From positions 23,274-87,273 of the forward strand of contig JAGLOJ010000044.1 of NCBI GenBank assembly GCA_023139045.1: a DNA stretch of 64,000 bases, in the 5' to 3' direction. This document shows positions 29,913 through 64,000 of the stretch, piece after piece. Source of the stretch: Candidatus Sabulitectum sp. GTDB taxonomy: Bacteria > Fermentibacterota > Fermentibacteria > Fermentibacterales > JCC-6. Position numbers and translations under genes: made by a program. The notes under the pieces were generated by a model. It did not search any database, was not told the DNA's origin, and saw nothing but the letters and a program-made list of their open reading frames with translations. Every line of letters starts with the position of its first letter. The first letter of the stretch is position 1.

Positions 29913-30038
29913 AATTCATTCCTCATGAAAAGGTTACAGATAAACATAGGAGCGAAAAGAAAGAAAACAAGGGGGGGTTGACACGATTGTACTACTTTGC
30001 TATTACAGTGGTACAATTTTGACAGAGGAGGAAATGTA

Positions 30039-30425
30039 ATGCTCAAAATTGATGCCGGCTCAGCAGTGCCTGTATACGAGCAGTTGAAAAGACAGATAAA
30101 ACTGAGGATAGTTTCCGGTAGGTATCCCTCCGATCACCGAATGCTCTCAATCAGGCAGCTTGCCTCGGAGCTTACGATTAATCCCAACACAATTGCCAAG
30201 GTTTACCGTCAGCTGGAGGGAGAGGGGTTTCTCATGTCAAAGACAGGTTCAGGATTCTTCGTAAAGCTCGAAAAGGAGCAAATGGGAACTACCAGAAGAA
30301 AACTGCTGGCTGAATTAACCGATGAATTCATCTCTCGGGTAGTTGAGCTTGGCTTCACGCCTGACGAACTAATAAACACTCTGTCTGAAAAGCTTGAGAG
30401 GAAATCTGCCGATGATCAAACTTAA
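30039..30425 (+). CDS. GntR-family (YtrA-like, short) transcriptional regulator
   Basis: The ribosome-binding site AGGAGG lies 8 nt upstream of the ATG. The wHTH is SIRQLASELTINPNTIAKVYRQLEGEGFL. A short C-terminus is typical of the YtrA subfamily that regulates adjacent ABC exporters. Confidence 0.8.
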   Translation: MLKIDAGSAVPVYEQLKRQIKLRIVSGRYPSDHRMLSIRQLASELTINPNTIAKVYRQLEGEGFLMSKTGSGFFVKLEKEQMGTTRRKLLAELTDEFISRVVELGFTPDELINTLSEKLERKSADDQT

Positions 30426-31212
30426 TAATTTAACCTGCGGCTATGGGAAGAATCCTGTTCAGTCAGATATATCCTTCGATATCAATGAAGGCGATGTTGT
30501 GATGATCACCGGACCCAACGGTGTGGGCAAATCAACCCTGCTCAAGGTTCTTGCAAACATTCTGTACCCGACCGCCGGAACAATAGACTACGGCTGGCCT
30601 GACACAAAAGACCCACGGCAACTCATTGGTTATCTGCCGGACAGTCTCAGCATCTACAAATCAATGAAAGTAAAAGATCTGGCAGAACTCCACTGGGGCG
30701 CATTCGGTGTAAAACCTGCACCTCTCCCCCTTCTCAAGGAAGCCTCCATTGACTGGAATTCAAGAATCAGCGAACTCTCAGTAGGGCAGAAAGCAATCTT
30801 CCACCTTTCACTGATACTCTCCACAAACCCGAAACTCATCCTTGTGGACGAAATACTGCACTCCGTTGACCCTCACCTTCGCAACCTGGCACTGGAAACA
30901 CTGGTAAAGACCATGGCAGACAGCAAACCAACTGTAGTCATGGTAAACCTGAATTACAACGAAGTTGAACACCTGGTTAACAGGGTAATCTTCCTGACGA
31001 AAACCGGCATCCTGCTGAATGAATCCACCGAGTACCTCCTGGAGAACGCCAGACTGGTTGTTGCCGACGAGGCCCCGGAAAATGCAAATGTACTCGCCAC
31101 CAGAAGTTATACAGGCAGAACCGAACACCTTGTTCTTCCAGGTGAAGGTGAGCAGATGAAACTCTCGGAAATTCTGACAATGCTCATGGGCAGCACCTAC
31201 CAGTCAGTGTAA
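30412..31212 (+). CDS. ABC transporter ATP-binding protein
   Basis: Walker A GPNGVGKSTLLKVL, signature LSVGQKAIFHLS, and Walker B LILVDE. Confidence 0.85.
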   Translation: MIKLNNLTCGYGKNPVQSDISFDINEGDVVMITGPNGVGKSTLLKVLANILYPTAGTIDYGWPDTKDPRQLIGYLPDSLSIYKSMKVKDLAELHWGAFGVKPAPLPLLKEASIDWNSRISELSVGQKAIFHLSLILSTNPKLILVDEILHSVDPHLRNLALETLVKTMADSKPTVVMVNLNYNEVEHLVNRVIFLTKTGILLNESTEYLLENARLVVADEAPENANVLATRSYTGRTEHLVLPGEGEQMKLSEILTMLMGSTYQSV

Positions 31213-31228
31213 GAAAGGAGTACCAGAC

Positions 31229-32029
31229 ATGTGGAAAAATGAAATCATGGACACCCTGAAGCAGACTGCGCTGGTGCTCAGTTTTTCTCTGCTGATCCCG
31301 ATAATTTATGGTATTAACAGCATGAGATTTCCAGAGGAAAATTTGTTCTTCACATGGTACATCGATTGGGGATTGACCTACCTGATCCCTATCCTGACAC
31401 TCTATCTGGCATACAACATGTTTGCCTCTGAAGATTCTGACGGGGCGTTGGAATACATGAAAAGTCTCCCTGTTAATAAATGGGAATTACTGGCCATCAA
31501 GATTCTTCCAAGGCTTGCTGTAACGCTTGTTCTTATGCTTATCTATACTTATCTTGTTATGGGTCATTATCTACCTCGTCAATTGGGAGTGTCCTGGCTG
31601 AGCACTTTGCTTCTACGCTTTTCCCTTCTCCCCAATGCCATCAGCATTGGTTTTCCCCTGATGGTTCTGATCTCAGGCTTCATGCTGGGAATCTCTAACA
31701 GAAAAAATCAATTTCTTGTTCTGGCCCTGGCAATACCAATACTGTACATGATTTACAGCCAGGGGTTCCTGGGCGTTCGATTCTCCCTTTACCACTTCTG
31801 GTGGAAGCTTTTCCAAACCGATCAATACAATCACATAATGCGACTTCTAAGTTCAGTTATCCAAATATACATTCCAGCAATGATACCTTTAGTTGTTCTG
31901 ATTCCTGTTTTCAAATCATGGGATTGCTCTTCAGGCAGAGCAAGAAGCGAGAGAATGCTGAAACGAATGGCCGGTCCACTGGGGTTGCTGATTGTTTTAT
32001 ACGCTGTCGGTCAACTCCATTTGCTTTAG
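31229..32029 (+). CDS. ABC-2-type permease, paralog 1 of 4
   Basis: Six-TM protein with the shared N-terminus M(W/L)K(N/K)EIMDTLKQTALV and the shared C-terminal motif SWDCSSGRxRSxRxLKRxAGP. Confidence 0.7.
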   Translation: MWKNEIMDTLKQTALVLSFSLLIPIIYGINSMRFPEENLFFTWYIDWGLTYLIPILTLYLAYNMFASEDSDGALEYMKSLPVNKWELLAIKILPRLAVTLVLMLIYTYLVMGHYLPRQLGVSWLSTLLLRFSLLPNAISIGFPLMVLISGFMLGISNRKNQFLVLALAIPILYMIYSQGFLGVRFSLYHFWWKLFQTDQYNHIMRLLSSVIQIYIPAMIPLVVLIPVFKSWDCSSGRARSERMLKRMAGPLGLLIVLYAVGQLHLL

Positions 32030-32041
32030 GAAGGTACAAAA

Positions 32042-32806
32042 ATGTTGAAAAAAGAAATCATGGATACTCTGAAGCAGACTACGCTGGTACTCAGCTTTCT
32101 CCTGCTGATCCCGATTGTGTTCTGGGTCAATAATATGATACTCCAGGACAATCCTCCGTTTTCGTTCTACCTCACCTCAGGAGTTATGCTGGGTATCACT
32201 CTTCTTGCATTTAGTCTGGCATACACAATGTTCAGCTCAAAAAGAGATGAATTTAAAAATTTGTTAAGTACAGCTTCCTCAAAATGGGAACTCCTTGCTG
32301 TAAAAACACTTCCAAGACTTACTGTGGTATGGATACTCATGTTAGCCTTCCTGATTATCGGTGCCATGCCTCCAGAGCAGATTGCAGGAAGCGCCTTTAT
32401 GCGCATTTTAGGCATCCGCCTGGGAGAATTTCTTGTGATATTCAGCGTGCCCCTGCTGATTATGCTGTCCGGTTTTTTCCTGGGTATGGCTGACAAAAAG
32501 AGCCCTCTTCTTATCGGTTGCTTCCTGCTGGCAATGACTTATCCTCTTCTTACCGGTCCAAAAATACTTATCAATGTGTTTGACAAGGTATTCATACCAT
32601 TGAGAATTACAGCAATCGCTACTCTTGATGTGGCAACGATAATAACTGTTTTGCTGCCTTCTGCTTTAGTCGTCTGTGTACTTATCCCCTTCTACAAATC
32701 ATGGAATGCTTCCTCGGAAAAAATAAAAAAAGAGAGAATGCTGAAACGAATGGCGGGGCCAGTGGGACTGATCATTCTTCTTTCCGCATACGCACTGGTG
32801 TCGTAA
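32042..32806 (+). CDS. ABC-2-type permease, paralog 2 of 4
   Basis: Same conserved N- and C-terminal motifs as paralog 1, with a diverged middle. Confidence 0.7.
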   Translation: MLKKEIMDTLKQTTLVLSFLLLIPIVFWVNNMILQDNPPFSFYLTSGVMLGITLLAFSLAYTMFSSKRDEFKNLLSTASSKWELLAVKTLPRLTVVWILMLAFLIIGAMPPEQIAGSAFMRILGIRLGEFLVIFSVPLLIMLSGFFLGMADKKSPLLIGCFLLAMTYPLLTGPKILINVFDKVFIPLRITAIATLDVATIITVLLPSALVVCVLIPFYKSWNASSEKIKKERMLKRMAGPVGLIILLSAYALVS

Positions 32807-32819
32807 GAAGGAGACTGGC

Positions 32820-33626
32820 ATGCTGAAAAAAGAAATAAAAGACACCCTGAAACAGACAGCTCTGGTTTTCAGTTTTATGCTGCTGATTCCAATTATTTTT
32901 GGTATCAATAATTTGAGATTTCCAGAAGAAGATCTTTCCTTTCTATGGTACATAGAGTGGGGTGTGAGTTACCTTATTTCTTTCCTGACTCTCTATCTGG
33001 CGTACAATATGTTTGCGTCAGAAGACTCTGATGGGGCATTGGATTACATAAGAAGTCTCCCTGTAAACAAATGGAAACTACTTGCTATCAAGATTCTTCC
33101 AAGGCTCGCTGTTACTCTGCTTCTTGTTTTTGCTTACAGATATCAGATTGAATACCGCTATACTCTTGGAGTGGCGGGAATTTCACAGAGTGGTATGCTT
33201 CTTTATCACTTCTCCTTTCTGCCCAACACAGGAATTTTCCTCATGATAATGATCGCAGGTTTCCTACTGGGAATATCAAACAGGAAGAATCCCTTTCTTG
33301 TTGTTGCCCTCGCAATGCCAGTGCTGTACATGATTCTCGGCAAGGCATCTCTTCCAGGACCAATGTATAGAAGTATTTATTATTGGTGGTATGGTCACTT
33401 TGGTTACATGTCCCACAATGTCTATCGTTCAATGATGTTCCTCTTTACTACTTTCCTTCAGGTCTACCTTCCATCAATACTATCATTCACAGTACTAATT
33501 CCAGTCTTCAATTCGTGGGATTGCTCTTCCGGAAGAATCAGAAGTCAGAGGATTCTAAAGCGAATAGCCGGTCCTCTGGGAATGATCATTGCTTTGTACA
33601 CAATCAGTAATTTCCGTTTTCTGTAG
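32820..33626 (+). CDS. ABC-2-type permease, paralog 3 of 4
   Basis: Same conserved N- and C-terminal motifs. It is closest to paralog 1. Confidence 0.7.
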   Translation: MLKKEIKDTLKQTALVFSFMLLIPIIFGINNLRFPEEDLSFLWYIEWGVSYLISFLTLYLAYNMFASEDSDGALDYIRSLPVNKWKLLAIKILPRLAVTLLLVFAYRYQIEYRYTLGVAGISQSGMLLYHFSFLPNTGIFLMIMIAGFLLGISNRKNPFLVVALAMPVLYMILGKASLPGPMYRSIYYWWYGHFGYMSHNVYRSMMFLFTTFLQVYLPSILSFTVLIPVFNSWDCSSGRIRSQRILKRIAGPLGMIIALYTISNFRFL

Positions 33627-33638
33627 AAAGGAGCTGGA

Positions 33639-34388
33639 ATGCTGAAAAAAGAAATCATGGATACTCTGAAGCAGACAGGAGCAATTTTAAGTTTCATGCT
33701 GCTGATTCCAGTAATACACCAGGTTAATGAGATCAGGCTGGGTGGTACTTCGTCTCTAGGTAACTATTTCATAAAAGGTGCATCACTGAATTTTATGTTA
33801 CTTATTGTCGGACTTGCATATATGATGTTCTCATCTGAAGATAATGATGATGCAATGGAGTATTTGAAATCTCTGCCTGTCTCAAAGTGGGAACTGCTCA
33901 ATATAAAGATACTTCCAAGGCTTGCAGTTCTATCTGTTCCCATACTGGGTTTTACTATTTTCTCTGCTCTAACGGCTCCTTCCGACATAACCGATTACTT
34001 CTTTCTGTTGGTAGCGCCAGTTGCACTTACAGTAATAATTGCTCTGATCTCCGGATTCTTCCTGGGAATATCAGACAGGAAGAATCCGATTCTTATAGGA
34101 GCAATGACCCTTCTTTCTTCATATCCAATATTCCTCGGATCCATTATTGTGCATAGAATTTCTCGATACATCGTTCACCAGACCCAAGCAGAAATCCCTC
34201 TCTACTTATACGCTCTTGTGCACTTTGTAACTGTAACGATCCCTGTATTGATCCCGTTGTGTCTTCTCATCCCAGTTTACAGATCATGGGATTGCAGATC
34301 CGGAAAAGTTAGAAGCCAGGCTATCCTGAAACGACTGGCAGTTCCTTCAATCCTGATTGTAATACTCTGGGGAGTACTTTCACCCTGA
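33639..34388 (+). CDS. ABC-2-type permease, paralog 4 of 4
   Basis: Same conserved N- and C-terminal motifs (MLKKEIMDTLKQT... and ...SWDCRSGKVRSQAILKRLAVP). Confidence 0.7.
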   Translation: MLKKEIMDTLKQTGAILSFMLLIPVIHQVNEIRLGGTSSLGNYFIKGASLNFMLLIVGLAYMMFSSEDNDDAMEYLKSLPVSKWELLNIKILPRLAVLSVPILGFTIFSALTAPSDITDYFFLLVAPVALTVIIALISGFFLGISDRKNPILIGAMTLLSSYPIFLGSIIVHRISRYIVHQTQAEIPLYLYALVHFVTVTIPVLIPLCLLIPVYRSWDCRSGKVRSQAILKRLAVPSILIVILWGVLSP

Positions 34389-34430
34389 TAAATCTTAAAG
34401 GCAGACTTAATCGACAACAAGGAGAAGTTA

Positions 34431-35567
34431 ATGAAAATGAAGCAGGAATTGATTCTTTTTACAGTTACGGCAGCAATCTTTTCGGGATGCGGAGAAAGCC
34501 CGCCGGAAGAAGTATCTGTAATAGAAACAGTGGAAGAAGTACCGGTTATACCCGATTCTGTGGCACAGTGGATTGAGTGGGCGGAAGAAAGCGGAGACGG
34601 GCTCTGGGAAGATGGCAGCCACAGGTTCATTCTGAAAGAATCCCTTGTTTACGGCGGACAGGAAATACCGCCTTTCTTCAATGTTGAAGGATTCGACTTC
34701 AAGGGTGATACACTGTTTGTAAGCGATCCTGCGGACCAATCTCTTGCTGCTGCCTCACTTACAACCGGAGAGCAGATCTGGAAAGTGGGGGAACAGGGAG
34801 GGGGGCCCGGGCATTTCAACGGTATCTGCGAAATTGCAGCAGGATCTTCCCGAATCGCTGTATGCGACATGGGCAACAACAGAGTTTCACTATTGAACTT
34901 TTCCGGTGAGTTTCTTACCGAAATTTCTATCCAGTGCCCGTTCGATGTCATGTGGAAAGGTGATACTTTATTTGTTCTCAGTCTTGCCGAAAGCAAACCT
35001 CTGAACATGTACAATGCAGATGGTGAGTTTCTTGACTCGTGCGGTGAATTGCCGGAAGAATTGGATATGCTTGCTTATTCAAACAGGCACCTCCACGGGG
35101 TAGTGGCTCCGAACGGTCATGTACTGGTTATTTCACGATTCCTTGCCGGAATATGGAAAATTGATCCTGCCACTGGTTCAACTGAATTGTTTTCTGAAAT
35201 TTCATTCCCCCAGGGTGAAATGGTAAATGATATTGCCAGTGGGTCATTTATGGTTCTCTCCAGAGACATCTTCATCGGCCCTGACGGAATGGTAAATGTG
35301 ATACTGCCTGTTTTCTCTGAAAATGGCGGGCCATTGTCTGACGGTAGTGAAATGCTTAAAACAACCGCAGTTCACAGGTACAACTGGGATGGTGAGTATC
35401 TGGACAGCTGGGTAATCGATGGTACTGTGGGTGTTGTGCTGATGCACAACGGGCAACTCTTCTCCGCAGACAGATATGCTGACGGTGTTGTAATTGATCA
35501 CGGTGTAATTCCGCTGAATCGGAGTGCAGAGCATGATATGAACGATGTGAGGTCGCAGTCCACATAA
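34431..35567 (+). CDS. NHL-repeat / six-bladed beta-propeller lipoprotein
   Basis: Lipobox FSGC. NHL-like repeats are present (GDTLFVSDPADQS...GGGPGHFNGICEIAA...IAVCDMGNNRV). It is a paralog of the genes at 57145 and 62689. Confidence 0.65.
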   Translation: MKMKQELILFTVTAAIFSGCGESPPEEVSVIETVEEVPVIPDSVAQWIEWAEESGDGLWEDGSHRFILKESLVYGGQEIPPFFNVEGFDFKGDTLFVSDPADQSLAAASLTTGEQIWKVGEQGGGPGHFNGICEIAAGSSRIAVCDMGNNRVSLLNFSGEFLTEISIQCPFDVMWKGDTLFVLSLAESKPLNMYNADGEFLDSCGELPEELDMLAYSNRHLHGVVAPNGHVLVISRFLAGIWKIDPATGSTELFSEISFPQGEMVNDIASGSFMVLSRDIFIGPDGMVNVILPVFSENGGPLSDGSEMLKTTAVHRYNWDGEYLDSWVIDGTVGVVLMHNGQLFSADRYADGVVIDHGVIPLNRSAEHDMNDVRSQST

Positions 35568-35779: not shown

Positions 35780-36019
35780 ATGCAAACAATCATTAAAAAA
35801 TGGGGAAACAGTCTTGCCGTGAGGATTCCGAAGGCAATTGCCGAAGATCTTCGCATCGAGAACAATTCAAAGGTTGAACTCTATACCGAAAATAATTGTC
35901 TCGTGGTTAAATCGATAGAAATTGAATACAGCTTAACTGAACTTCTCTCAAAGGTGACTGAGGAAAACCTGCACAAGGAGATTGATACTGGAAGAAGTGC
36001 AGGGAGGGAAGAATTGTAA
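35780..36019 (+). CDS. mazE: MazE/AbrB-type antitoxin
   Basis: IIKKWGNSLAVRIPKAIAEDL is a SpoVT/AbrB swapped-hairpin motif. Size is 79 aa. Confidence 0.75.
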   Translation: MQTIIKKWGNSLAVRIPKAIAEDLRIENNSKVELYTENNCLVVKSIEIEYSLTELLSKVTEENLHKEIDTGRSAGREEL

Positions 36020-36039: not shown

Positions 36040-36341
36040 TTGGTCTGGATTTCCTTTGACCCTCAGGCTGGCCACGAGCAAGATGGAAGAAGACCTGCAC
36101 TGGTTCTATCACCGAAAGAATACAATGCCAGAGTTGATCTTGCTCTTTTGTGCCCTGTCACATCCAGAATAAAGGCTATCCATTTGAGGTTCTTCTTCCG
36201 AAAAGCTGTCTTATTACAGGTGTTGTACTATCCGATCAGGTAATAAATCTTGATTGGCGGGCAAGAAATGCAGAGATTGCAGACAGGGTACCAGATTCAA
36301 TACTTCATGAAGTTCTATGTAAACTTGGAACATTGCTGTAA
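36040..36341 (+). pseudogene. mazF: MazF/PemK-family toxin interrupted by a +1/-1 frameshift near 36150-36240
   Basis: Frame 1 gives GELVWISFDPQAGHEQDGRRPALVLSPKEYN...CPVTS. Frame 3 continues as KGYPFEVLLP...GVVLSDQVINLDWRAR...LHEVLCKLGTLL. Joined together, these make a complete MazF. Confidence 0.6.
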
Positions 36342-36346
36342 CAACT

Positions 36347-36823
36347 TCAGTGCAGTCCCATTTCCATAACAAATTCGGATATGGCTCCGGTTTCAAGATC
36401 AGATGTGCTGGTTCTTGATTTCTTGATGATAAACATGATAAGCTTCTCGACAAGGTTCAACTTTTCCCAGTAGATTTCATCACCGAAGAGTTTCTTTGAT
36501 ACAGCGTGCGTATGAAGTTCTTCGCCAAAGAGCTTCAGATATCTTCTGCCTGTTTCACTGTGGTCTCCACAGCATATAAACAGACCAAGTTTCTTTTTGA
36601 GAAGCTGTTGCCTGTTCTTTGTGCAGAATGCAGTCATCTCCTTCTGAATCTTTCCCACATAGACTGAAGAGCCGAGGATTATTTTATCGAAAGGCTCAGT
36701 ATCAAAATCCGGTTTTTCCGCAAGATCCACTGTTTTTATTTCCCCGGATGCTTTTTCTCTGAGAATTCCAGCACATTTTGCTGCGGTGCCGTGCTTCGTG
36801 GTGTAAAGGATGACAGTATTCAT
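36347..36823 (-). CDS. Flavodoxin-like domain protein
   Basis: N-terminus MNTVILYTTKHGTAAKCAGIL is the flavodoxin FMN phosphate loop. Size is 158 aa. Confidence 0.6.
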   Translation of the reverse strand: MNTVILYTTKHGTAAKCAGILREKASGEIKTVDLAEKPDFDTEPFDKIILGSSVYVGKIQKEMTAFCTKNRQQLLKKKLGLFICCGDHSETGRRYLKLFGEELHTHAVSKKLFGDEIYWEKLNLVEKLIMFIIKKSRTSTSDLETGAISEFVMEMGLH

Positions 36824-36837
36824 GCTTTCTCCTTTTC

Positions 36838-38463
36838 TCAGTGAGGGCCGATGGCTCTGCAGTTGTCCGGCGGCAGTGAATCAACAGCCATGTAACCATC
36901 AGGCACATTGCCTGTAAATTCGTAGATGATGGTGTTGTCGGATTCTGTTCTCCAGACTTCCGTGATGAATGGCGGGGGATCGATTACATCCCAGGAAGTG
37001 CCATCGGGAGATCTTCTCCAGCACCTGGAAAGCCAGGGCCTTAAAGTCGGGAGGTCTCTGTCGACCACCATATACTGCACATTGTGTTTCTCAAGATAGG
37101 GCCAGAGGAGCATTTCGTAGTCGTTGGGCCAGGCAAGAGTTGGCTTCCGGTAGATCCAGTGAAACAGTTCCACATTCGGATAGGTGCAGACCCATGCCGA
37201 GTCAGAAGCATTCTCCTCTACCCATACGGCGACCACCCTGGCCTCTGCGGCTCTCGCCCTGCTTTCCGTCTGCATTACCCTGATGAAAGGGGCGGCAAGA
37301 ATCAGAATACATATCAGTATTATCCAGTACAGAAGAACTCTTCCCTGTGGTCTTTGTATTGTTTCCTTGAATCCTGCAGCTCCAATTCCAACAACTGCTG
37401 GAACGGCGATGGTCAGATATCTGCCGGCGTGCTGGTGCAGAACAAGAGCAAGAAGTACCGGTCCAATGGCAATTAGCGGAAGAAGCATTTTCCGTCTGGT
37501 TTTTAGAGAAAGCAAGGCGATCATTCCCGGCACCATGAAGAGTACGAGGGTGGGCTGCCCAAATATTTCTCCCCGGTGAGTACTGCCCAGCGTAAAGGGC
37601 TCTATCACTCTGAGAATACCTGCACCGAGATATTTTGCAACCGCTGCAGACCCCTGATTGTTCCACATGTCTGAAGGGGATGGGGCTGTCTCACGAACAC
37701 TCCATGCAGACCAGTGGTTCTCGTTGAGAAGAAACTGACCATTCTGGCTGTGAGTAGGGCTTCCAAATTCATTCATGTTCCTGATCAACCACGGAGATAC
37801 AATAATCAGAGCTGTCACTCCGCAGAGGATGGCCTTCAGCCACTTTTTTTTACCGCCCTTCAGAAGTATCCACACGCCCATTGCGGGCACAGCAAGCACT
37901 CCCTGGGTTCTGGTCAGATAGAGAAAACCGGACATAGCCCCAAGAACGAATGCCCTCTTCCAGGATATCTCTTCCCTGTCAGCCACGATGAGTATCAGAT
38001 AAAACAGAGCTAGGTAAAGCATCAAGCTGTCCGGTTGAGTGGAGAACCATACGAATGGCGGATCCACCGCCAGATAACCAAACACCACCAGGGCAGCCTC
38101 TCTGCCGAATAGTTTTTTTGCCCAGTAAGCGCAGAAAAACATGGCCAGCAGTCCGTGGAACAACACCACCATTTGTGCCTGAACTATGCCAGTACCGAAA
38201 AGGGCAAATGCCGGCATCAGCAACAAAGCCATTGCTGGCTGCCTGTTTGCCTCCGGCCTCAGAAACTCATCCGATGGATCGTAAAGGGTCCATTTTACGA
38301 ATGTCTTAAACCCAAGACCCCTCTTAAGGTTGTCTGCCAGAAGAATATGTGAGGCCATGCCATCACCGGCTGGAATCGGGTTACGAAGAACCACCCATCC
38401 GCGGATAAGAACTCCGACTAACAGTATGAGAACTGTCGCAAGAAGAAAAGTTTTTTTACTCAT
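36838..38463 (-). CDS. Membrane glycosyltransferase of the ArnT/PMT type (GT39/GT83-like)
   Basis: 541-aa polytopic protein. An N-terminal TM is followed by the loop RNPIPAGDGMASH. Many TM helices fill the N-terminal two thirds, and a soluble C-terminal domain follows. Confidence 0.6.
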   Translation of the reverse strand: MSKKTFLLATVLILLVGVLIRGWVVLRNPIPAGDGMASHILLADNLKRGLGFKTFVKWTLYDPSDEFLRPEANRQPAMALLLMPAFALFGTGIVQAQMVVLFHGLLAMFFCAYWAKKLFGREAALVVFGYLAVDPPFVWFSTQPDSLMLYLALFYLILIVADREEISWKRAFVLGAMSGFLYLTRTQGVLAVPAMGVWILLKGGKKKWLKAILCGVTALIIVSPWLIRNMNEFGSPTHSQNGQFLLNENHWSAWSVRETAPSPSDMWNNQGSAAVAKYLGAGILRVIEPFTLGSTHRGEIFGQPTLVLFMVPGMIALLSLKTRRKMLLPLIAIGPVLLALVLHQHAGRYLTIAVPAVVGIGAAGFKETIQRPQGRVLLYWIILICILILAAPFIRVMQTESRARAAEARVVAVWVEENASDSAWVCTYPNVELFHWIYRKPTLAWPNDYEMLLWPYLEKHNVQYMVVDRDLPTLRPWLSRCWRRSPDGTSWDVIDPPPFITEVWRTESDNTIIYEFTGNVPDGYMAVDSLPPDNCRAIGPH

Positions 38464-50426: not shown

Positions 50427-51809
50427 TCATTTAATCTGCTGAAACAGTCTTGGAAGTTGCTCAATCAAATACAACGGCAGAGAGAGTAAATCACATTCAA
50501 CCTGCACAGTCGCGCCGGCTTGAGCAAGCCCGTGACTTATGTGCTGTAGAGATGGCGGGTTAAGATCGAAACGCACCGCTCTGGTGCATTTCTTCTGAGA
50601 AACAAACTGAAGTAGAGATTTTAGAGATCCGCTTTTCCCCGCCTTCACTTCAACCGGCACTATTGACTGGTCAAGCTGAATCAGGAAATCAACCTCTGCA
50701 TTTGCCGTTCTTCCCTCTCGCAACCAGTATGTAAGTGATTTAAAACCGGATGTTCTACCCATACTGCAAAGATGCTGGGCAATAAACTGTTCGGTGATTT
50801 TTCCCCTATTTATAAATGAAACAGTCTGTAACTCCTCCAGCGATATTCTGGTAACTCCGCACATGTGATTAACTAAACCGCAATCCAGAAAGTAGGGCTT
50901 GAATATGCGTTCATTAATTGTTGCTCCCAAAGGCAATCCCGACCCATCAGTGTGGTATGTCTTCACTATCAACTGGGCTTTCACCAGCAACTCAAGCGCT
51001 GTACGAACATCCCGCGCATGTGAATCAGGGCTGACTCGGAAATACTTGAACTTTTCACCAATTCCACGGGGCACATACTCAAATATCCTGTGGATCATCT
51101 GCAAAGCAGACCTGCGGGAATACTTGGCAAAGTCGTCCTTGTATGTCTCAGTGATAGAGGCATGAACATCTGTCACCTGGCTGAAATCCTCACCTGATTC
51201 GATGTACCGCTGTACAGCTTCAGGCATGCCTCCTGTAAGAAAATACTTCCTCTGCAGATCCAGAAGCCGGGCATGGGCTGTACCTGGAAAATCATCGCCA
51301 ATCTGATGCGTTCTCAAGAGGGCAAGAAGATCATCCTGAGACATTGCCTCAAGTACTTCTTCAAAACTCATAGGATAAAGGAAAAGGTATTGTATTCTAC
51401 CCACAGGCATTGAAATACTGTGTTTTGCCAGAGTAAACTCCAGAAGAGAACCAGCTGCAATCAGAGGGATATGAGGATGCTCCTCAAAGAAGTAGCGCAA
51501 AGATTGAATTGCTTCGGGAATGGCTTGAATCTCATCCAGAAATATGAGATCTTTTCCGGTGCGAATACTGCCTTTTCCGCAGAGATATTCCAACTCCTGG
51601 ATGATTCTACCAGGATCATTTGTTTTAAACACAGAAACTAGAGTGGGATGCCGCTCCAGATTGACTTCATGTAAATTAAGACCATTCTTTTCTGCGAATT
51701 GCCGAACCAGAGTTGATTTCCCAACCTGTCTTGCGCCGTGAATCACAAGTGGCTTTCTGGATGATGCTCCCAGCCAGCGGAATAGATTTTTCTCAGCAAA
51801 GCGTTTCAT
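50427..51809 (-). CDS. AAA-family ATPase with a DUF4143-type C-terminal domain (COG1373)
   Basis: P-loop IHGARQVGKSTLVRQ and Walker B LIFLDEIQ. Size is 460 aa. Confidence 0.7.
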   Translation of the reverse strand: MKRFAEKNLFRWLGASSRKPLVIHGARQVGKSTLVRQFAEKNGLNLHEVNLERHPTLVSVFKTNDPGRIIQELEYLCGKGSIRTGKDLIFLDEIQAIPEAIQSLRYFFEEHPHIPLIAAGSLLEFTLAKHSISMPVGRIQYLFLYPMSFEEVLEAMSQDDLLALLRTHQIGDDFPGTAHARLLDLQRKYFLTGGMPEAVQRYIESGEDFSQVTDVHASITETYKDDFAKYSRRSALQMIHRIFEYVPRGIGEKFKYFRVSPDSHARDVRTALELLVKAQLIVKTYHTDGSGLPLGATINERIFKPYFLDCGLVNHMCGVTRISLEELQTVSFINRGKITEQFIAQHLCSMGRTSGFKSLTYWLREGRTANAEVDFLIQLDQSIVPVEVKAGKSGSLKSLLQFVSQKKCTRAVRFDLNPPSLQHISHGLAQAGATVQVECDLLSLPLYLIEQLPRLFQQIK

Positions 51810-52223: not shown

Positions 52224-53576
52224 TCAATATCCAAAAGCCTGGGCCCCAGCAGGAGCATCTTCATTTCTCAGTAGCCACTTCCATGCTGGAATTATATCTA
52301 TCTTACCACTGTATGTTTCAATTGTTTCTTCATCATGAAGAGAAATGACAGTACTCTTTGAAAGCTTCAGCTCTTCCATTGCCTCACTAAGTGCCCGAAT
52401 TTCTCGATTTCGAGTTTTCAAGTTTGTTAAGTCTGCACAAACTTGGATGAGTTCAAAAACAGTGTTTGTTTCCGGATCACCTGTAATGAAATCAACTTCA
52501 TGTTTGCTGTTAGTGATATAGTAACTGATCGAGGCATCACGACGGAAGTAAAATCGTTTTCGCAGATTCAGAAAAACACAGTTTTCTAGTCTCGATCCCA
52601 GATTTGAGACTCCAGCAGATGAGACAGAAAAAGACAAACCTGGATCGATGGTGTAGATCTTCCTGGGGTTAACCTCTCTAACTCTTAAAGATCTGTTGAA
52701 TACAGAAATTGGAAACAAAAGAAAAGCGTCCTCAAAATGTGCAACAAGGTTATACAGCATTTCTTTACCTACTGAGATTCCTCTTGATTTGAAATCGTAA
52801 AAAACTCTATTAACTGAAAACAAGGAACCAGAGTTTTGCAGAAGCATTCGGGCGAAAGATCTAACTGCATTGATATTCTTTATTGAGTACCGCTCAATAA
52901 TGTCTCTTACTAAAACCAGCTCAACATAATCCTGTAAAACTTGATTTCTTTGATAATCATTCATTGATTGAATCCCTGGAAAACCACCCTGGTCAAGATA
53001 CTTCTTGAATAGATCCTCCATATCAAAAACTGTTTTACCCGGAGGATATTCTGGTGGCAGTTCTATTTCATGGAAAAGCAGGAATTCTTCAAAACTCAAC
53101 GGAAACAGCTCCCTTGCAAATCCCCTTCCTCTGAATTCAGTTGCCACTTCTGTAGAAAGCAATTTTGCTGAAGAACCTGTAACATAAAGACTGGCACTGG
53201 GATTATCCGTTATCCTCCGGGCGAATCGACTCCATCCTGAAATACTCTGAATCTCATCTAAAAACAGATGAAAGCTTCCCTCCCTGGCTTGTGGACTAAT
53301 CCGAAAGAAAGCATCCAGCAGATCTGACAGAATCCCAGATCCGTATGGATGTAATCTGTCGTCTTCAAGATTCAAGTATAAAATCGTTGAAGGATCCACT
53401 CCTTCTGAAATCAGTTTGTTTATGTGTTGAAACAATCGAAAAGTTTTACCTGTTCGCCTCATTCCAATAATAACCGAGGCCATGCCAGCCACTGGACTGA
53501 TATCCAAAATGCGAGGCCTGAGATCAGGAATCGGCCGAAACAACGAATCTGCTACGAATTGTTCTATGTGATTCAC
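52224..53576 (-). CDS. AAA-family ATPase with a DUF4143-type C-terminal domain (COG1373), a divergent paralog
   Basis: P-loop GMRRTGKTFRLFQ and Walker B HLFLDEIQ. Size is 450 aa. Confidence 0.7.
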   Translation of the reverse strand: MNHIEQFVADSLFRPIPDLRPRILDISPVAGMASVIIGMRRTGKTFRLFQHINKLISEGVDPSTILYLNLEDDRLHPYGSGILSDLLDAFFRISPQAREGSFHLFLDEIQSISGWSRFARRITDNPSASLYVTGSSAKLLSTEVATEFRGRGFARELFPLSFEEFLLFHEIELPPEYPPGKTVFDMEDLFKKYLDQGGFPGIQSMNDYQRNQVLQDYVELVLVRDIIERYSIKNINAVRSFARMLLQNSGSLFSVNRVFYDFKSRGISVGKEMLYNLVAHFEDAFLLFPISVFNRSLRVREVNPRKIYTIDPGLSFSVSSAGVSNLGSRLENCVFLNLRKRFYFRRDASISYYITNSKHEVDFITGDPETNTVFELIQVCADLTNLKTRNREIRALSEAMEELKLSKSTVISLHDEETIETYSGKIDIIPAWKWLLRNEDAPAGAQAFGY

Positions 53577-53669: not shown

Positions 53670-53884
53670 TTGCCGAACCAGAGTTGATTTCCCAACCTGT
53701 CTTGCGCCGCGAATCACAAGTGGCTTTCTGGATGATGCTTCCAGCCAGCGGAATAGATTTTTCTCAGCAAAGCGTTTCATTCATCACCTCCTGAACTTGA
53801 TATTGGCCATATCATACCCCTCTTTTCACCACTTGATGTACATATCATACCCTTATTATACACACTATGCAATATCGCAGTTTC
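53670..53884. repeat. Direct repeat copy 2. It contains a 5' remnant of about 37 codons of a COG1373 ATPase gene (53670..53780, minus strand) plus the duplicated upstream region.
   Basis: It aligns with 51700..51912. The remnant reads MKRFAEKNLFRWLEASSRKPLVIRGARQVGKSTLVRQ and then loses homology. Confidence 0.85.
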
Positions 53885-54133
53885 GAATCGGGATCAATTC
53901 AAGCCTTGCTGGATACCGATCTTTCTTCACGCAAATCAGAAACAGGCAGAAACAAGACCACAACATTAATTTCGCTATATTTCAGGTATGCCGGTTTATT
54001 TATTTGTAGTTCTTCTTTCCCCTATACCAGAATACGAGTTTTACATATTTTGCCTATCAAGCTCCATTCAGATTCAAGTAGAAGCCGTTTGCAGAGTAGA
54101 TCTGAATTGAAAAACAGCAGTACCACTTCCAAC

Positions 54134-55825
54134 ATGAGGAAACTCTGGCAAGACCGCAGGCTGCTTTTTCGCACCCTGACATTCCTCAAGCCATGGCTCA
54201 AATGGCATGCTCTTGGGCTTTTCCTCACAATTCTGGCTGCTGGTCTTGCTCTGGTTCAACCCTGGGTGACCAGGCTTCTTATTGATAAGGTTCTAATAGA
54301 TGGCAATACAGACCTGCTTCTTAAAATCTGCTTTGCCTATTTAGGAGCTGTACTTCTTGGTTCCCTCGTAGGTATGGCAATGTCGATTCTGTTCTCCTGG
54401 GTTGGCCAGAGCGCAGCAATAGACTTGAAGATGGCCCTGTACAAAAAGTTGAATACCCTGTCCATGGCCTTTACCGGCAGGAAAAGGGTGGGAGAACTGA
54501 TGGCGGGGTTTACCAGTGATATCCCCGTTATGCAGAGTTTGTACTCTTCAACCCTTTCAAGTACAATCAGTGAGGTAATCAGGTTCTTCGTAGTACTGGC
54601 AGTAATGATTTCTATTAACCCGCGACTTACCCTCCTGGCTGTACCATCCATTCCCCTGTTCGCCATAATTATTGCATTGGCAGGAACCATGCTGAAAAAG
54701 GCCAGTGCTGAAGTTCAAGAGAAAAGAGCTTTCTTCACTGCTACGCTTCAGGAACAGCTTTCAGGTCTCCGCACATCTGCTGCCTTCAATCTTGAGAACC
54801 GGGAAAGCGTTAAGTTCAAGAACTCCATGACAGATCTTATGCACTCAAGTATTCGCCTTACAGTTAAAGGCTTTGTAATGAATGCCGGTTCCCTGCTGGC
54901 ATCAACTACTCTCATTCTTGTGATATGGCTGGGTGGAAAAGAAGTAATTCAGGGCAGGATGGACGTTGGTGTACTGATTGCTTTCATCAGCTATTTCGGT
55001 ATGCTGTTTGGCCCTGTAGGCTCCATTGCCGGAATCGCCACACAGATTCTGAAAGCTATGGGTGCCGCAGAGAGGGTATTCACAGTCATAGATACAGAAC
55101 CCGCCGTGACAGAGCTTCCCGGTGCAGCAGAACTCACTGGTGTTAAGGGTAAGGTTGAATTCAAAAACATCAGTTTTTCCTACTCGGAAGAGTCTCCAGT
55201 TCTGAAGAATTTCAACGAGGTTATCCATGCAGGTGAAACAGTAGCCCTGTCCGGTGACAGCGGATCAGGCAAAACCACTCTGATATCTCTGTTGCTCCGT
55301 TTCTTCGATCCGGATAGCGGTGAAATTCTGATTGATGGAAACTCAACAAAAAACTTCACCCTTGAATCCCTCAGGAGAAACATCGGCGTGGTTTTTCAAG
55401 ATCCGTTCCTTTATCACTGTTCCGTGGCACAAAACATTCTTCTTGGCAGTCCTGAAGCATCAATGGACGAAATTGAAAAAGCGGCAAGGGCAGCCCATGC
55501 CCATGAGTTCATCACAACCTTGCCTGATGGTTACGATACTCTTGTCGGGGAACGGGGCAGCAGTTTATCCGGTGGGCAGGTTCAGAGGCTTGCCCTTGCC
55601 AGAGTATTCCTGAAGGATCCACCCATCGTTGTACTTGATGAAGCCACCAGCGCGCTTGACAGTAAAAGCGAGTCCAAAATACAGGATGCTGTTTCTCATC
55701 TTTTACAGAGCAGAACATGCCTTGTTATTGCTCACAGGCAATCTACTGTGGAGTCTGCTGACAGGGTAGTATCAGTTCCGCTTTTATCGGGCAATAACGA
55801 CATTACTCCCCTTGCTGCCAAATGA
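54134..55825 (+). CDS. ABC exporter, a fused transmembrane domain and ATPase (MsbA-like). The start is chosen at MRKLWQ.
   Basis: Six-TM ABC transmembrane domain, Walker A LSGDSGSGKTTLISLL, signature LSGGQVQRLALAR, and Walker B IVVLDEATSALD. Confidence 0.85.
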   Translation: MRKLWQDRRLLFRTLTFLKPWLKWHALGLFLTILAAGLALVQPWVTRLLIDKVLIDGNTDLLLKICFAYLGAVLLGSLVGMAMSILFSWVGQSAAIDLKMALYKKLNTLSMAFTGRKRVGELMAGFTSDIPVMQSLYSSTLSSTISEVIRFFVVLAVMISINPRLTLLAVPSIPLFAIIIALAGTMLKKASAEVQEKRAFFTATLQEQLSGLRTSAAFNLENRESVKFKNSMTDLMHSSIRLTVKGFVMNAGSLLASTTLILVIWLGGKEVIQGRMDVGVLIAFISYFGMLFGPVGSIAGIATQILKAMGAAERVFTVIDTEPAVTELPGAAELTGVKGKVEFKNISFSYSEESPVLKNFNEVIHAGETVALSGDSGSGKTTLISLLLRFFDPDSGEILIDGNSTKNFTLESLRRNIGVVFQDPFLYHCSVAQNILLGSPEASMDEIEKAARAAHAHEFITTLPDGYDTLVGERGSSLSGGQVQRLALARVFLKDPPIVVLDEATSALDSKSESKIQDAVSHLLQSRTCLVIAHRQSTVESADRVVSVPLLSGNNDITPLAAK

Positions 55826-55976
55826 GACTGTCGCTGGACAGATTATGATGCGTGAAGTGGAGCCCTTTTCAGACAGGAGCTATCTATTGCGGAAAAATAG
55901 AGGTATTGACACTCGAAAGTGGGGGGGGGTATATACGGTGGTGCTATTCACTAATTAACTTTTGGAAAGGTGAGAT

Positions 55977-57152
55977 TTGCCAGAGATGAAAATTGATTAT
56001 TATCTGCTTGCCGTAAGTACCTTACTGCTTTCCTGCAGTAAAGGGTATGAAGAGATGGATCCGGTCGCCTATCAGATAATTGAAAATCCTTCGGAAGTCA
56101 CTGTTGAACAGATAGCTGATATTCCATACATGTTTGCACATGATGGTTTGTTAATTCCTGGCAGCATTGATTCCTCTGATGATGTTATAGTTCTGGGGTT
56201 CTGTGGTGATTCTACGACTGCCGGTATATCAGCTTATGACTGGGAAGGAAAACTGCTCTGGTCAACAGAATATGGTACATATGGATATGCCTCAGCCGTA
56301 TGTGTTGATGGAAACAGGGTACTCTTTTCTGTTACTGATGAGATTCCGGTTCTTGATTCTGCCACAGGTGAAATGATTGAAACAATCAGCGCAGAAGGGC
56401 TCAGTGATATTCTTGTACTACCCGAGGCACCCGATGGACAGTCTATGCCAGACTTTAGACTCGCTCAGGGGATGGAAATACAAAGCGAGATTATGCTCTG
56501 GAATAAGCCGGAGTGTGATTTAAATTTCTCATATTGTGGATTCTTATCTGATTTGCACTGTTCCTTCCAAAGGTATCTCAGGGTTACACGAATCGATGGA
56601 TTATGGTATATCGGCATGACAGAGGGACATTACGAGCGCCTCAGTATTTATAAGGTACCGGATTTCCAGCATTCATTGCGACCAAAGGTATTCGATATTG
56701 CTCTGACAGACACATCGGTCGTCGCTATTCTTTCGTTTAGAGACATGGTGATGGAGTTTGCTTTTGATGGCAGGCTTATCAGAACGACATATTTTGGTCA
56801 TGAGCTTGAAGGTCCTATAAGTTTCACATACGACAGTTTTATGGGTAGTACAATTTTCAGGTATTTAATCGCTGATATTGATACCGATGACGAAGGCTGT
56901 ATTTACCTGCTTTACTCCGGTTACGGGGTTGGTCAAAACGGTAACGCCGAGATTTGGAAGGTGAATACTGTTTCCCTTACTGCTTCTATGGCCAGGCTGG
57001 ACCATTCCGCAGTGGCTTTCACGATTTGCGGCAGCAGAGCGGCCGTTGTGGAGCAGCAGCATGAGCCTGGCGAGGGTGATGAAATAGTATTAACCGGAAC
57101 CCCTTCGATTCATGTTTATCAGATAGAATGGGAGGACAGTACAAGTGTCTGA
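55977..57152 (+). CDS. Beta-propeller-like lipoprotein, a distant paralog of the NHL lipoproteins
   Basis: Lipobox LLSC. Composition is beta-rich. Its end overlaps the next lipoprotein gene. Confidence 0.55.
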   Translation: MPEMKIDYYLLAVSTLLLSCSKGYEEMDPVAYQIIENPSEVTVEQIADIPYMFAHDGLLIPGSIDSSDDVIVLGFCGDSTTAGISAYDWEGKLLWSTEYGTYGYASAVCVDGNRVLFSVTDEIPVLDSATGEMIETISAEGLSDILVLPEAPDGQSMPDFRLAQGMEIQSEIMLWNKPECDLNFSYCGFLSDLHCSFQRYLRVTRIDGLWYIGMTEGHYERLSIYKVPDFQHSLRPKVFDIALTDTSVVAILSFRDMVMEFAFDGRLIRTTYFGHELEGPISFTYDSFMGSTIFRYLIADIDTDDEGCIYLLYSGYGVGQNGNAEIWKVNTVSLTASMARLDHSAVAFTICGSRAAVVEQQHEPGEGDEIVLTGTPSIHVYQIEWEDSTSV

Positions 57153-58257
57153 TTCTTCTATTTTCTTCCTGCTGTGCATTATTCTTTGTACTGCCGGGCT
57201 ATCTTGCCAGTCAAATGTTGACAGCGATGTTTCCGTTTGCGAAGAACTGATCGAGTGGAGAGAATGGCTCGAAGCGTCCAGTCCTCCTGAAGTAGAAACT
57301 GACATGCCGTTTTACATTCCTTCCGATACGATACTGTCACCGGAGACGTGTGAGTATGAGTATTTCATGATAGAGAGTTTTGTGATTGATGACAACAGGA
57401 TATTTCTCAGCGATGGAAAATCCAGCACTCTTCTAGCTTTTAGCTTTGATGGGGAACTTCTCTGGAAAACCGGTGGCAAGGGAGAGGGTCCCGGTCTCTT
57501 CAGTGGTATAGGGAATATAGCCTGCAAGGGTGATACTCTCGCAGTATGTAATCATGCTGTAGGTCGCGTAGATTATTTCGACTGTAACACTGGTGAGTGG
57601 ATATCATCCATATCAATACTATGGCCGTATGACCTTTGTTTTCTTCCGAATGGTAATCTGGTTGTTGTAAGTCTAATGCAGAATGATCTTGTTACAGTAT
57701 TTACGCCATCAGGGGAAAAAGTTTTTAGCTCAGGTTCATGGAATGCACCAGGAGAGGAAGCCTTCCATTTTTTGTTCTCAGCAGGCAACAGGAATATGCG
57801 TTCAACTCTCGTATGTGACAGCGTACTGGCGGTCAATTCCTATTTTTATAACTGGTGTCAATTATACAATACCAACTCTGGAGAATTGATCAATGCGTTC
57901 AAACGTGAACTGCCTTTTCCCGAAATGGAGTTTGAAGAAATAAACGGGGTGTTTGTCGGGAAAATCTATGCAATTGATATTGCGTCGTTCGGGAGTATGA
58001 TTGCGATTTTACATAGGCCTCCAGAGGATAGTTGGGATATTTCATCAAGGTATGATGAAATTCCTTTTTATGAAATCGATTTTGCAATGGTTGATATCTG
58101 GGATACTGAAGGAGAGTACATAGGCAGTTTTGCCTTCCCTCGTGGGGTAGGACGTATCCTCTGGCACGATGGAATAATGTACGGTGCAACTGATGGGTCA
58201 GGAGAGCTGATTCGATATACTGAGATCACTTTCGATTCAGAAAGAAATCTGGAGTAA
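57145..58257 (+). CDS. NHL-repeat / six-bladed beta-propeller lipoprotein
   Basis: Lipobox GLSC. The motif block DNRIFLSDGKSSTLLAFSFDGELLWKTGGKGEGPGLFSGIGNIACKGDTLAVCNHAVGRV is parallel to those in the 34431 and 62689 proteins. Confidence 0.65.
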   Translation: MSDSSIFFLLCIILCTAGLSCQSNVDSDVSVCEELIEWREWLEASSPPEVETDMPFYIPSDTILSPETCEYEYFMIESFVIDDNRIFLSDGKSSTLLAFSFDGELLWKTGGKGEGPGLFSGIGNIACKGDTLAVCNHAVGRVDYFDCNTGEWISSISILWPYDLCFLPNGNLVVVSLMQNDLVTVFTPSGEKVFSSGSWNAPGEEAFHFLFSAGNRNMRSTLVCDSVLAVNSYFYNWCQLYNTNSGELINAFKRELPFPEMEFEEINGVFVGKIYAIDIASFGSMIAILHRPPEDSWDISSRYDEIPFYEIDFAMVDIWDTEGEYIGSFAFPRGVGRILWHDGIMYGATDGSGELIRYTEITFDSERNLE

Positions 58258-59007
58258 ATTCTGAAGTTTCCTGGGTTCTCAACCTTGGGAACGGTGTTCT
58301 GGCCCATGGTACAAGTTTTCCTCCAGCAGCAAATGTATGTCCGAAGCAGCCACCAAGACAGTACCTAAACAAATCACACTGTGAATCTCGGTAAATCGTC
58401 TGTCTGTTGCTGTCAGCATACCTTACATCGTGTAAGACCGAAAAATTTTCCCACGACCTGACACAGAGAAGGAACAGAGGGTCCAGTCGCTTTCGCAGAT
58501 CATCTATAGTCTGCTGTAAATCGCACATTCATCACTTCTTTTGTGTCTGATTTCATAATTACGGATCTGCCGTGTTTTTTCTCTTGATTCTTTCCCAATC
58601 ACGAGTTTCTTCCACCCAGGCAGCTCACCAAACAATTTGCTGCACACAACTTCTCCCCGGGAATCATTCATAATTACTGCTTTATCAATCTCTCTTTTAA
58701 CCCCATCGTAGTAGAGCAGATAAACTGGTTCTATCTCCAGCATCGCCGGGAACTTCACCTGAACCGGTGTCAACGGTTGGTTAAATTTTCCGATATCATA
58801 AAACCCTGTATATCCTGTGCCATGAATTGTACATATTGCAGTTTCGATTTAGAGCCTCAATTCCTCTCTTTGTTGAAATCAATCATTCTTCCCTGAATTC
58901 GGAAACAGCAGAATCAAGACAACAGCATCAATTTCGTTATACTTTAAAGGATGTCGATTTATTTATAAATCCTCTTTCTCAATATCAGAATGTGAGGTTT
59001 ACATCTT

Positions 59008-62647: not shown

Positions 62648-62688
62648 AAATAAATCTCCAAGCTGTAAGCTGTCTCTAAGCTCCTTCT

Positions 62689-63780: not shown

Positions 63781-64000
63781 CTCTCACCTCTTTTTTAAAT
63801 AGTTCTGTCTTGTACGATGTGCAATAACTTTGGCATAATTCACCCGAATCCAACGACAACTGCATCAGCGTTTGTATTTGATGGAAAATTTCACATCTGC
63901 ACTAGTGTAATAGCACAGTAGTACAATCTTGTCAACCGGCATGAAGAATTGCTGGCCTGGGTGAAGAAGGGAATGTCTGTAACTCTGCTGAATGGCAGAA

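Follow-up and report, generated by a model that had tools for sequence, protein, structure and literature searches.

Does a lipoprotein encoded directly behind the genes of an ABC (ATP-binding cassette) transporter belong to that transporter, and what would the assembly do? The question is raised by a locus in a stretch of 64,000 nucleotides (nt) from contig JAGLOJ010000044.1 of Candidatus Sabulitectum sp., hereafter called the window. A first reading made from the letters alone (the sequence-only reading) had placed at 30039-35567 a GntR regulator, an ABC ATPase, four tandem ABC-2-type permeases and an NHL beta-propeller lipoprotein, and had taken the lipoprotein for a working part of the system. 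The seven open reading frames (ORFs) were found again at these coordinates, all on the + strand. Comparison of gene order in related loci shows the GntR-ATPase-permease-lipoprotein partnership to be conserved. We give below the evidence for this partnership, then the function that we tentatively assign to it. The first operon (operon 1) is composed as follows.

29978-30015, + strand: predicted promoter and operator of operon 1; TTGACA (-35), 17 nt, TATTAC (-10), with a detected inverted repeat
30039-30425, + strand: YtrA-subfamily GntR repressor, 128 amino acids (aa), first gene of the operon; PF00392, 45 bits
30412-31212, + strand: ABC ATPase (ATPase 1), 266 aa; PF00005, 76 bits; overlaps the GntR gene by 14 nt
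31229-32029, + strand: permease P1, A-type, 266 aa
32042-32806, + strand: permease P2, B-type ("middle" clade), 254 aa, assigned by alignment and tree; motif SWNASSE
32820-33626, + strand: permease P3, A-type, 268 aa; 58-60% identity to P1; PF12679, 22.5 bits, below threshold
33639-34388, + strand: permease P4, B-type ("last" clade), 249 aa, assigned by alignment and tree
34431-35567, + strand: Lipo1, NHL six-bladed beta-propeller lipoprotein, 378 aa, lipobox Cys20

The spacing between consecutive genes is -14 to 42 nt, with 12-16 nt from permease to permease and from the ATPase gene to P1. The Lipo1 gene begins 42 nt past P4 and has its own AAGGAG site. Within the operon there is no excess of intrinsic terminators or internal promoters, the counts of both being at or under the shuffle expectation. 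We read 29978-35567 as a single autoregulated operon under a predicted sigma-70-type promoter.

In all 11 distinct related loci that come with upstream DNA (L001, L002, L003/L004, L005/L006, L009, L010, L011, L013, L014, L015 and L016) a permease of the same family lies 3-60 nt before the lipoprotein gene. Wherever the contig is long enough, in Sabulitectum, Fermentibacteraceae and Aegiribacteria, the full order is found: GntR, ATPase, two to four permeases, lipoprotein. In the Aegiribacteria loci (L005, L006 and L015) the upstream flank differs while the block is intact, and in L005 a short downstream stretch differs as well. Orthologues were found only in Fermentibacteraceae, by genome and protein searches biased to close relatives; the scan of the genome collection used exact peptide patterns, which favour such relatives.

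The regulator and its site are the second element of this conservation. The winged helix-turn-helix of the GntR protein occupies residues 13-75 (PF00392, 45.4 bits versus a cut-off of 27), and residues 9-115 align with the short YtrA-type structures 4r1h, 3neu, 4ham and 2du9/2ek5 (Cgl2947). Members of the YtrA subfamily have a very short C-terminal domain (about 50 aa) and a total length of about 120-130 aa (PMC5080381, PMC6746942), and the window protein, 128 aa with a short C-terminal domain, is of this size. Its top short NCBIfam matches, PmtR and the Rv1152 family, are both under cut-off. YtrA-type regulators are typically encoded by the gene placed first in an operon that holds ABC transporter genes, and their operators are long palindromes with distant half-sites (PMC6746942). 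The operon 1 palindrome, TGTACTAC-N12-GTGGTACA, covers 28 bp (29988-30015) and spans the -10 element. The YtrA-like logic of regulator and ABC genes put forward by the sequence-only reading thus holds, through the short YtrA-type structural relatives, the first place in the operon and a palindrome with distant half-sites.

The same arrangement is found elsewhere: a palindrome TGTACTAC-N12-GTAGTACA with an overlapping -35/-10 promoter precedes every GntR gene compared. The promoter-operator can be aligned in 8/8 GntR upstream regions (the window and seven distinct loci, Aegiribacteria included), and the DNA farther upstream is not alignable among these eight regions. A scan of the window gave two promoter-operator matches, versus 0.00 expected by chance, the second of them in front of another lipoprotein and transporter operon (operon 2).

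63898-63935, - strand: predicted promoter-operator for operon 2, TTGACAagatTGTACTACtgtgcTATTACaCTAGTGCA; located some 120 nt upstream of where Lipo2 starts
62689-63780, - strand: Lipo2, paralogous propeller lipoprotein, 363 aa; 31% identity to Lipo1
61805-62647, - strand: ABC ATPase 2, 280 aa; YLPES, H-loop His
61104-61808, - strand: ABC-2-like permease, 234 aa; weak PF12698 and PF12679 matches
60358-61104, - strand: ABC-2-like permease, 248 aa; weak PF12698 and PF12679 matches

The second association that had been reported near the end of the window is therefore real: at 60358-63780 a lipoprotein, an ATPase and two ABC-2-like permeases follow one another on the - strand. The gene order is opposite to that of operon 1, the lipoprotein coming first, then the ATPase and the two permeases. 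L018, from a different organism and with unrelated flanks, keeps this order, with a lipoprotein 42% identical and an orthologous permease pair. The operon 2 palindrome (63898-63925) has the architecture of 29978-30015. When the palindrome was searched with up to three mismatches in 310 kb of related-locus DNA, sites were found only before GntR genes and at locus 2. Operon 2 has no adjacent regulator gene, and the 10 kb past the window end hold an Mbh/Mrp-type cluster. For another YtrA-type regulator, repression of a second locus has been described (PMC6746942). Since the two operons share an operator, since locus 2 is without a regulator and since YtrA-type precedents are published, operons 1 and 2 probably form one regulon under the GntR repressor, whose binding is predicted. 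As to other control elements, a riboswitch or structured leader before operon 2 was considered and rejected (no Rfam match; fold z-score +1.1). The half-site octamer TGTACTAC taken by itself has 5 copies in the window versus 0.57 expected; three are intragenic (41699, 56414 and 56845), without a partner half-site, and two of these three lie within a lipoprotein gene at 55977-57152.

Taken together, the adjacency in 11 loci, the differing flanks in Aegiribacteria, the second pairing kept in L018 and the shared promoter-operator support the earlier claim that the lipoprotein is a genuine component of the system.

The propeller family is also present in a third, related module of the window.

53867-55825, + strand: MsbA/HlyB-type ABC exporter, without a C39 peptidase domain
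55977-57152, + strand: lipoprotein paralogue
57145-58257, + strand: lipoprotein paralogue
59008-60102, + strand: lipoprotein paralogue

No maturase or precursor gene is seen in this module, and the 58257-59008 gap holds no convincing Cys-rich precursor ORF. The nearest Lipo1 paralogues outside its orthologous group (28-37% identity) are those of L020 (1-5740) and L007 (1-3932). Each of them comes behind a Cys-rich ORF of 52-62 aa, a radical-SAM/SPASM maturase-like gene and a second lipoprotein, and in L020 the set is followed by a type-I ABC exporter. The lipoprotein pair 55977-57152 and 57145-58257 of the window has a counterpart in both L020 and L007. The arrangement of these two loci looks like an undescribed type of ribosomal-peptide cluster in Fermentibacterota-like organisms. 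Judged from gene content, modules of three types bring the propeller lipoprotein family together with ABC transporters, and one of the three is plainly a ribosomal-peptide cluster.

What kind of protein is Lipo1? The assignment to NHL-type propeller lipoproteins is borne out by a six-bladed fold and by a lipobox with an invariant Cys20. The signal peptide ends in this lipobox (FSG-C), MKMKQELILFTVTAAIFSG-C, for which lipidation is predicted; Cys20 does not vary among 24 orthologues and paralogues. The AlphaFold model (pLDDT 79) has six four-stranded blades, and the closest structures are NHL domains. The orthologues are 63-87% identical, with 120 invariant columns (18 orthologues). The invariant polar residues are N84, N130, Q168/C169/D172, N218/H220/H222, R236, R278/D279 and D347/R348/Y349. 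Placed from strand order, and not from three-dimensional distances, they appear to sit, blade by blade, in the D-A and B-C loops, the face on which propeller enzymes and binders usually act. Lipo1 is also the slowest-evolving part of the system: between Sabulitectum-type and Aegiribacteria loci it is 61-66% identical, where the ATPase reaches 42-45% and the permeases about 30%.

The full-length family is small, with about 40 single-stretch relatives among the top 150 matches in 1.84 billion representatives, the remaining matches among these 150 being giant NHL-repeat proteins. Beside the DUF5128 or "6-bladed beta-propeller" lipoproteins (PF17170) and other NHL propellers, the Lipo1 group stands as a separate small family; it differs from the PF17170 lipoproteins by a fixed ABC-2 partner and by its own N-terminal helix. 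This conserved helix precedes the propeller (residues 44-59, W-x2-W-A-E-x-S-x-G-L-W) and may be a docking element. A helix of the form W-x2-W-[AL]-x2-S-x2-G-L-W is present in Lipo1, 62689-63780, 57145-58257, P0064, P0065 and P0069, that is in subfamily members that pair with transporters or follow a maturase, and is absent from 59008-60102 and 55977-57152.

ATPase 1 has intact Walker A (GPNGVGKST) and Walker B with its catalytic Glu (LILVDE), and its signature reads LSVGQ. It carries Asp at the position of the Q-loop Gln (YLPDS) and Leu at that of the H-loop His (VNLN), as assigned by phmmer alignments to PoxtA and OpuCA-type nucleotide-binding domains (D opposite Q, L opposite H). Both substitutions are found in 8/8 ATPases (the window and the orthologues of L001, L002, L003, L005, L009, L013 and L015). 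ATPase 1 thus departs from the canonical motif set of catalytic ABC ATPases at the Q-loop, the signature and the H-loop. ATPase 2 has Glu at the Q-loop position (YLPES, an "E-loop") and keeps the H-loop His. Loss of this His is unusual in a nucleotide-binding domain that is presumably homodimeric, and it is expected to slow ATP hydrolysis. An ATPase that keeps Walker A and B but has neither Q-loop Gln nor H-loop His is a useful natural test case for the ABC mechanism.

The four permeases are paralogues, as first proposed, with 36-60% mutual identity (relative to P1: P2 40%, P3 60%, P4 43%), a common N-terminus and the C-proximal motif SW[DN]xSS..R..LKR.A.P. With ABC2_membrane_2 (PF12679, threshold 27.2) P1 scores above the threshold (35.6), P3 (22.5) and P4 (25.9) below it; P2 has no Pfam match, yet is clearly homologous to P1, P3 and P4. 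A conserved Cys pair (WDCSSG) had been pointed out in the motif. This pair does not exist: the motif holds one Cys, P2 has none (SWNASSE), and M, V, T, A or L are found in orthologues, so that a special role for the pair is left without support. Only W-D and the basic residues are conserved in the motif.

Nor are the genes four equivalent tandem copies. A neighbour-joining tree sets a long A-type clade (P1, P3) apart from two B-type clades (P2-like and P4-like). The order is A-B-A-B in the window and in L009, and A-A-A-B in L002; L001, L003 and L013 hold two permease genes of the A and B types, so that relatives range from two to four copies. A member of the P4-like clade adjoins the lipoprotein gene in five loci. 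The Aegiribacteria loci have two permeases each, in a separate clade of the tree. In L003 (7479-8254) the first, A-type permease gene is split into ORFs of 83 and 178 aa, either a decaying copy or a sequencing error. With its two subunit types the array has the look expected of a heterodimeric ABC-2 membrane domain for which spare or alternative subunits are available.

The two types also differ in how closely they follow the rest of the operon. Between the window and its closest relative, L009, identity is 88% for the ATPase and 80% for the lipoprotein, and only 48-51% for the A-type permeases. For the B-type permeases, P2 is 81% identical to L009_2, and P4 is 68% identical to L009_4 and 57% to L002_4. 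The window P1 (W_P1) is nearer to L002_3 (60%), which comes from a more distant genome than L009. Because of this proximity and of the low A-type identity to L009, the A-type copies predate the species and have been sorted through gain and loss. Of the first 26 codons of the paralogues, 5-10 differ synonymously. This rules out a recent duplication or gene conversion as the source of the alike N-termini, which owe their likeness to selection on the protein. The amplification is thus old and retained, as the sequence-only reading had it, in view of these codon differences and of relatives in other genomes that are closer than those in their own.

The predicted structure of P1 (pLDDT 81.7) has an N-terminal helix leading into the first transmembrane helix (TM1), and seven long helices in total; an ABC-2-like fold of the type V/VI exporter kind would have six membrane helices beside a separate ATPase. 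The top Foldseek match for the permease fold is NosY, a weak one (TM-score 0.37-0.40). Four parts are predicted to be cytoplasmic when hydropathy is combined with the positive-inside rule: the N-terminus with its interfacial helix, the loop between TM2 and TM3, SNRKN, and the basic loop SWD..R..LKR. The majority-residue frequency is 0.80 in the predicted cytoplasmic segments, 0.58 in the transmembrane ones and 0.35 in the outside loops. The simplest reading is that a single ATPase has to accept every one of the permeases, whose outward parts can diverge freely or are driven to do so, which would explain both the conserved cytoplasmic segments and the variable outward loops.

What, then, would this system do? 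The reading that we favour, with a confidence that stays somewhat below even, is an inducible immunity or resistance module that would protect the cell envelope against a membrane-active, probably peptide-like compound, possibly of the type of the ribosomally synthesised and post-translationally modified peptides (RiPPs), in the manner of LanFEG-LanI or PmtR-Pmt. Compounds of peptide type are proposed, rather than cell-wall antibiotics, because paralogous lipoproteins lie in radical-SAM/SPASM peptide clusters. The GntR protein would occupy both operators and keep the -10 element blocked until released by an inducer. Two ATPase subunits would form the pump together with a permease of each type, A and B, and the additional A/B pair would offer alternative membrane domains for the one shared ATPase. 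The pump would clear the compound from the inner membrane, and the lipoprotein would bind or inactivate it outside through the invariant face of the propeller. This would be the working mode of LanFEG-LanI or PmtR-PmtABCD, built from unrelated or very distant parts.

The likeness to LanFEG-LanI (NisFEG with NisI) lies in a single ATPase gene accompanied by two unlike ABC-2-type membrane chains and by a lipoprotein; in an acidic residue at the Q-loop position, Glu as in an E-loop in ATPase 2 and Asp in ATPase 1 of the window and its 7 orthologues; and in lipoprotein paralogues linked to ribosomal-peptide clusters. In LanFEG pumps the membrane chains are of two kinds and a lipoprotein acts as partner (bioRxiv 10.1101/2025.10.09.681468; PMC5786555), and an acidic "E-loop" that takes the place of the Q-loop is described as a hallmark of LanF (bioRxiv 10.1101/2025.10.09.681468). 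In contrast, there are as many as four permeases here, the repressor is YtrA-type where LanFEG has LanRK, ATPase 1 is without its H-loop His, the lipoprotein is an NHL propeller and not of the NisI type, and the host is a diderm from the FCB (Fibrobacterota-Chlorobiota-Bacteroidota) group. Membership of LanFEG itself was rejected: with TIGR03740 ATPase 1 scores 63.6 bits and ATPase 2 98.3 bits, versus a cut-off of 309.75. No lanthipeptide genes were found in the window.

PmtR-PmtABCD of Staphylococcus aureus is alike in having a YtrA-subfamily repressor first in an ABC-2 exporter operon, with an operator that overlaps the promoter, and PmtR and PmtA are among the best NCBIfam matches of the window GntR protein and ATPase. 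The peptide that is exported acts as the inducer by releasing PmtR, a repressor of YtrA type, and the same pump serves export and protection (PMC5080381). Pmt differs in having two ATPases, two permeases and no lipoprotein, and PmtR controls its own operon alone. Here too membership was rejected (PmtR 53.5 versus 200; PmtA 72.6 versus 350; one ATPase gene only in the operon).

Two further systems are comparable at a greater distance. The ytrABCDEF operon of Bacillus subtilis likewise begins with a YtrA regulator followed by ABC genes, paralogous permeases included, a likeness set by gene arrangement and not by sequence-level orthology. B. subtilis Ytr has two ATPases and the membrane protein YtrF with an external domain, and is not known to include a propeller lipoprotein. 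The operon is an inducible envelope-stress operon (summarised in PMC6746942). NosDFY-NosL resembles the locus by an ABC-2 permease with periplasmic partners, by NosY as the top Foldseek match and by PF12679, which P1 matches. The periplasmic partners of that permease include a lipoprotein (PMC8457098). NosY forms a homodimer, in contrast to the two to four different chains found here. Membership of NosDFY was rejected since neither a NosD beta-helix partner nor a nos gene context is present in either operon or in the related loci; NosZ and copper-related genes are lacking too.

Several points weigh against the immunity reading. The function is inferred from architecture and analogy, and the permease topology is a prediction. 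Curated profile hidden Markov models of the LanF, PmtA and PmtR types give scores far under their cut-offs, and the fold of Lipo1 is unrelated to that of NisI-type LanI proteins. No peptide-biosynthesis genes lie beside either ABC-2 operon in the window. The 120 invariant columns of Lipo1 are more in keeping with an enzyme or a fixed partner than with an immunity protein engaged in an arms race. Lastly, ATPase 1 without its H-loop His may hydrolyse ATP poorly, which is unexpected for a high-flux exporter.

Some of these same features would suit a delivery or mechanotransduction machine like NosDFY-NosL, LptB2FG or CcmAB, with the lipoprotein as the enzymatic or acceptor end of an envelope pathway. 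The ABC-2 complex would then extract a cargo (a lipid-linked molecule, a metal or a cofactor) or transmit ATP-driven motion to the lipoprotein. An ATPase lacking the H-loop His fits a slow, switch-like motor, and both the extreme conservation of the lipoprotein and the fold matches go in the same direction. However, these fold scores are weak, and the operon has no NosD-, LptC- or CcmC-like partner. Two to four permeases, with A-type turnover among close relatives, are unexpected for a housekeeping function, and an autorepressed YtrA-type promoter suggests an on-demand response. We consider such a machine unlikely, but a serious contender.

The system could instead secrete an endogenous product, on the model of Pmt or AlbCD; the product would release the repressor, and the lipoprotein would be a receptor, a chaperone or a tailoring enzyme. 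PmtR-Pmt operates in this way, paralogous lipoproteins are encoded within radical-SAM/SPASM clusters beside an exporter, and the window itself holds an exporter with three lipoproteins at 53867-60102. But neither a precursor nor a maturase gene was found across the 64 kb of the window and the next 10 kb past its end, and the operon of type 1 occurs in many genomes, on contigs of up to 305 kb, without linked biosynthetic genes. Secretion appears improbable to us as the role of operon 1, and the present data do not distinguish it from self-protection.

That the lipoprotein is just a conserved neighbour of an ordinary exporter (GldAF-like or a generic drug pump), kept by shared ancestry, is very improbable: all the loci come from one family-level lineage, in which synteny could be inherited, the distant family members L019, L021 and L025 have no ABC neighbour, and GldA is the top NCBIfam match of both ATPases, but the block is kept despite differing flanks (L005, L006, L015), L018 keeps an independent paralogous pairing in reverse order, one operator is common to the two lipoprotein/ABC-2 operons, the lipoprotein gene lies 3-60 nt behind the last permease without a detectable strong promoter of its own, and GldAFG membership fails on scores (GldA 88.1 and 107.6 bits versus 402.6; GldF 16.6-22.8 versus 288.5) and on the lack of a GldG-like gene. 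An importer fed by a substrate-binding protein was also rejected, a propeller fold being found in place of such a protein and the membrane domains being of the ABC-2 type.

Returning to the immunity reading, it can be extended into a wider proposal, which we regard as doubtful as a whole. The modules would form a "chassis and cartridge" immunity system specific to Fermentibacterota, in which the ATPase is constant and the lipoprotein near-invariant, and recognition is set by interchangeable, old and polymorphic A-type permeases, each choice of permease fitting a given exported Cys-rich radical-SAM peptide or another compound active on membranes. NHL-propeller lipoproteins would then be an unrecognised class of extracytoplasmic ABC partners in ribosomal-peptide systems, present in three module types (ABC-2 type 1, ABC-2 type 2, and exporter plus radical-SAM), at least two of them under one YtrA-type repressor. 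The superfamilies of all the components are known, and so is the logic of a YtrA regulator, an ABC-2 pump and an accessory lipoprotein; what is specific to the lineage is the combination of parts, the use of a propeller as partner, the regulon made of two operons and an ATPase poor in the usual motifs. If propeller lipoproteins are indeed general ABC partners in peptide systems, they make a new accessory class for ABC-2 exporters and a handle for finding the cognate peptides; if the module is no more than a drug pump of this lineage with a lipoprotein gene beside it, the finding is an ordinary one. Fermentibacterota (FCB) are uncultured anaerobes of sediments and digesters, in which the defence and building of the envelope are almost unexplored. 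The locus offers a testable unit there: a predicted repressor, a 28-bp operator at two promoters, a pump with alternative subunits and a highly conserved propeller protein of the surface or the periplasm.

Some neighbouring genes are worth recording. Downstream of operon 1, the genes of a Flavodoxin_5 protein and of a PMT_2-type glycosyltransferase (541 aa) occupy 36347-38463 on the - strand; this synteny is kept in the Sabulitectum and Fermentibacteraceae loci, and none of it is seen in the short downstream stretch of L005. Between the Lipo1 gene and these two genes the window has a MazE antitoxin gene (35780-36019), then a MazF/PemK toxin gene split over two frames (36040-36243 and 36150-36341) by a frameshift or an assembly error. 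In L002, L003 and L011 the lipoprotein and the flavodoxin/PMT_2 genes are directly adjacent. The window also contains two AAA_14/DUF4143 ATPase genes, both on the - strand (50427-51809 and 52224-53576), and a gene of this family (L005, 4596-5867) lies directly upstream of the GntR operon in Aegiribacteria.

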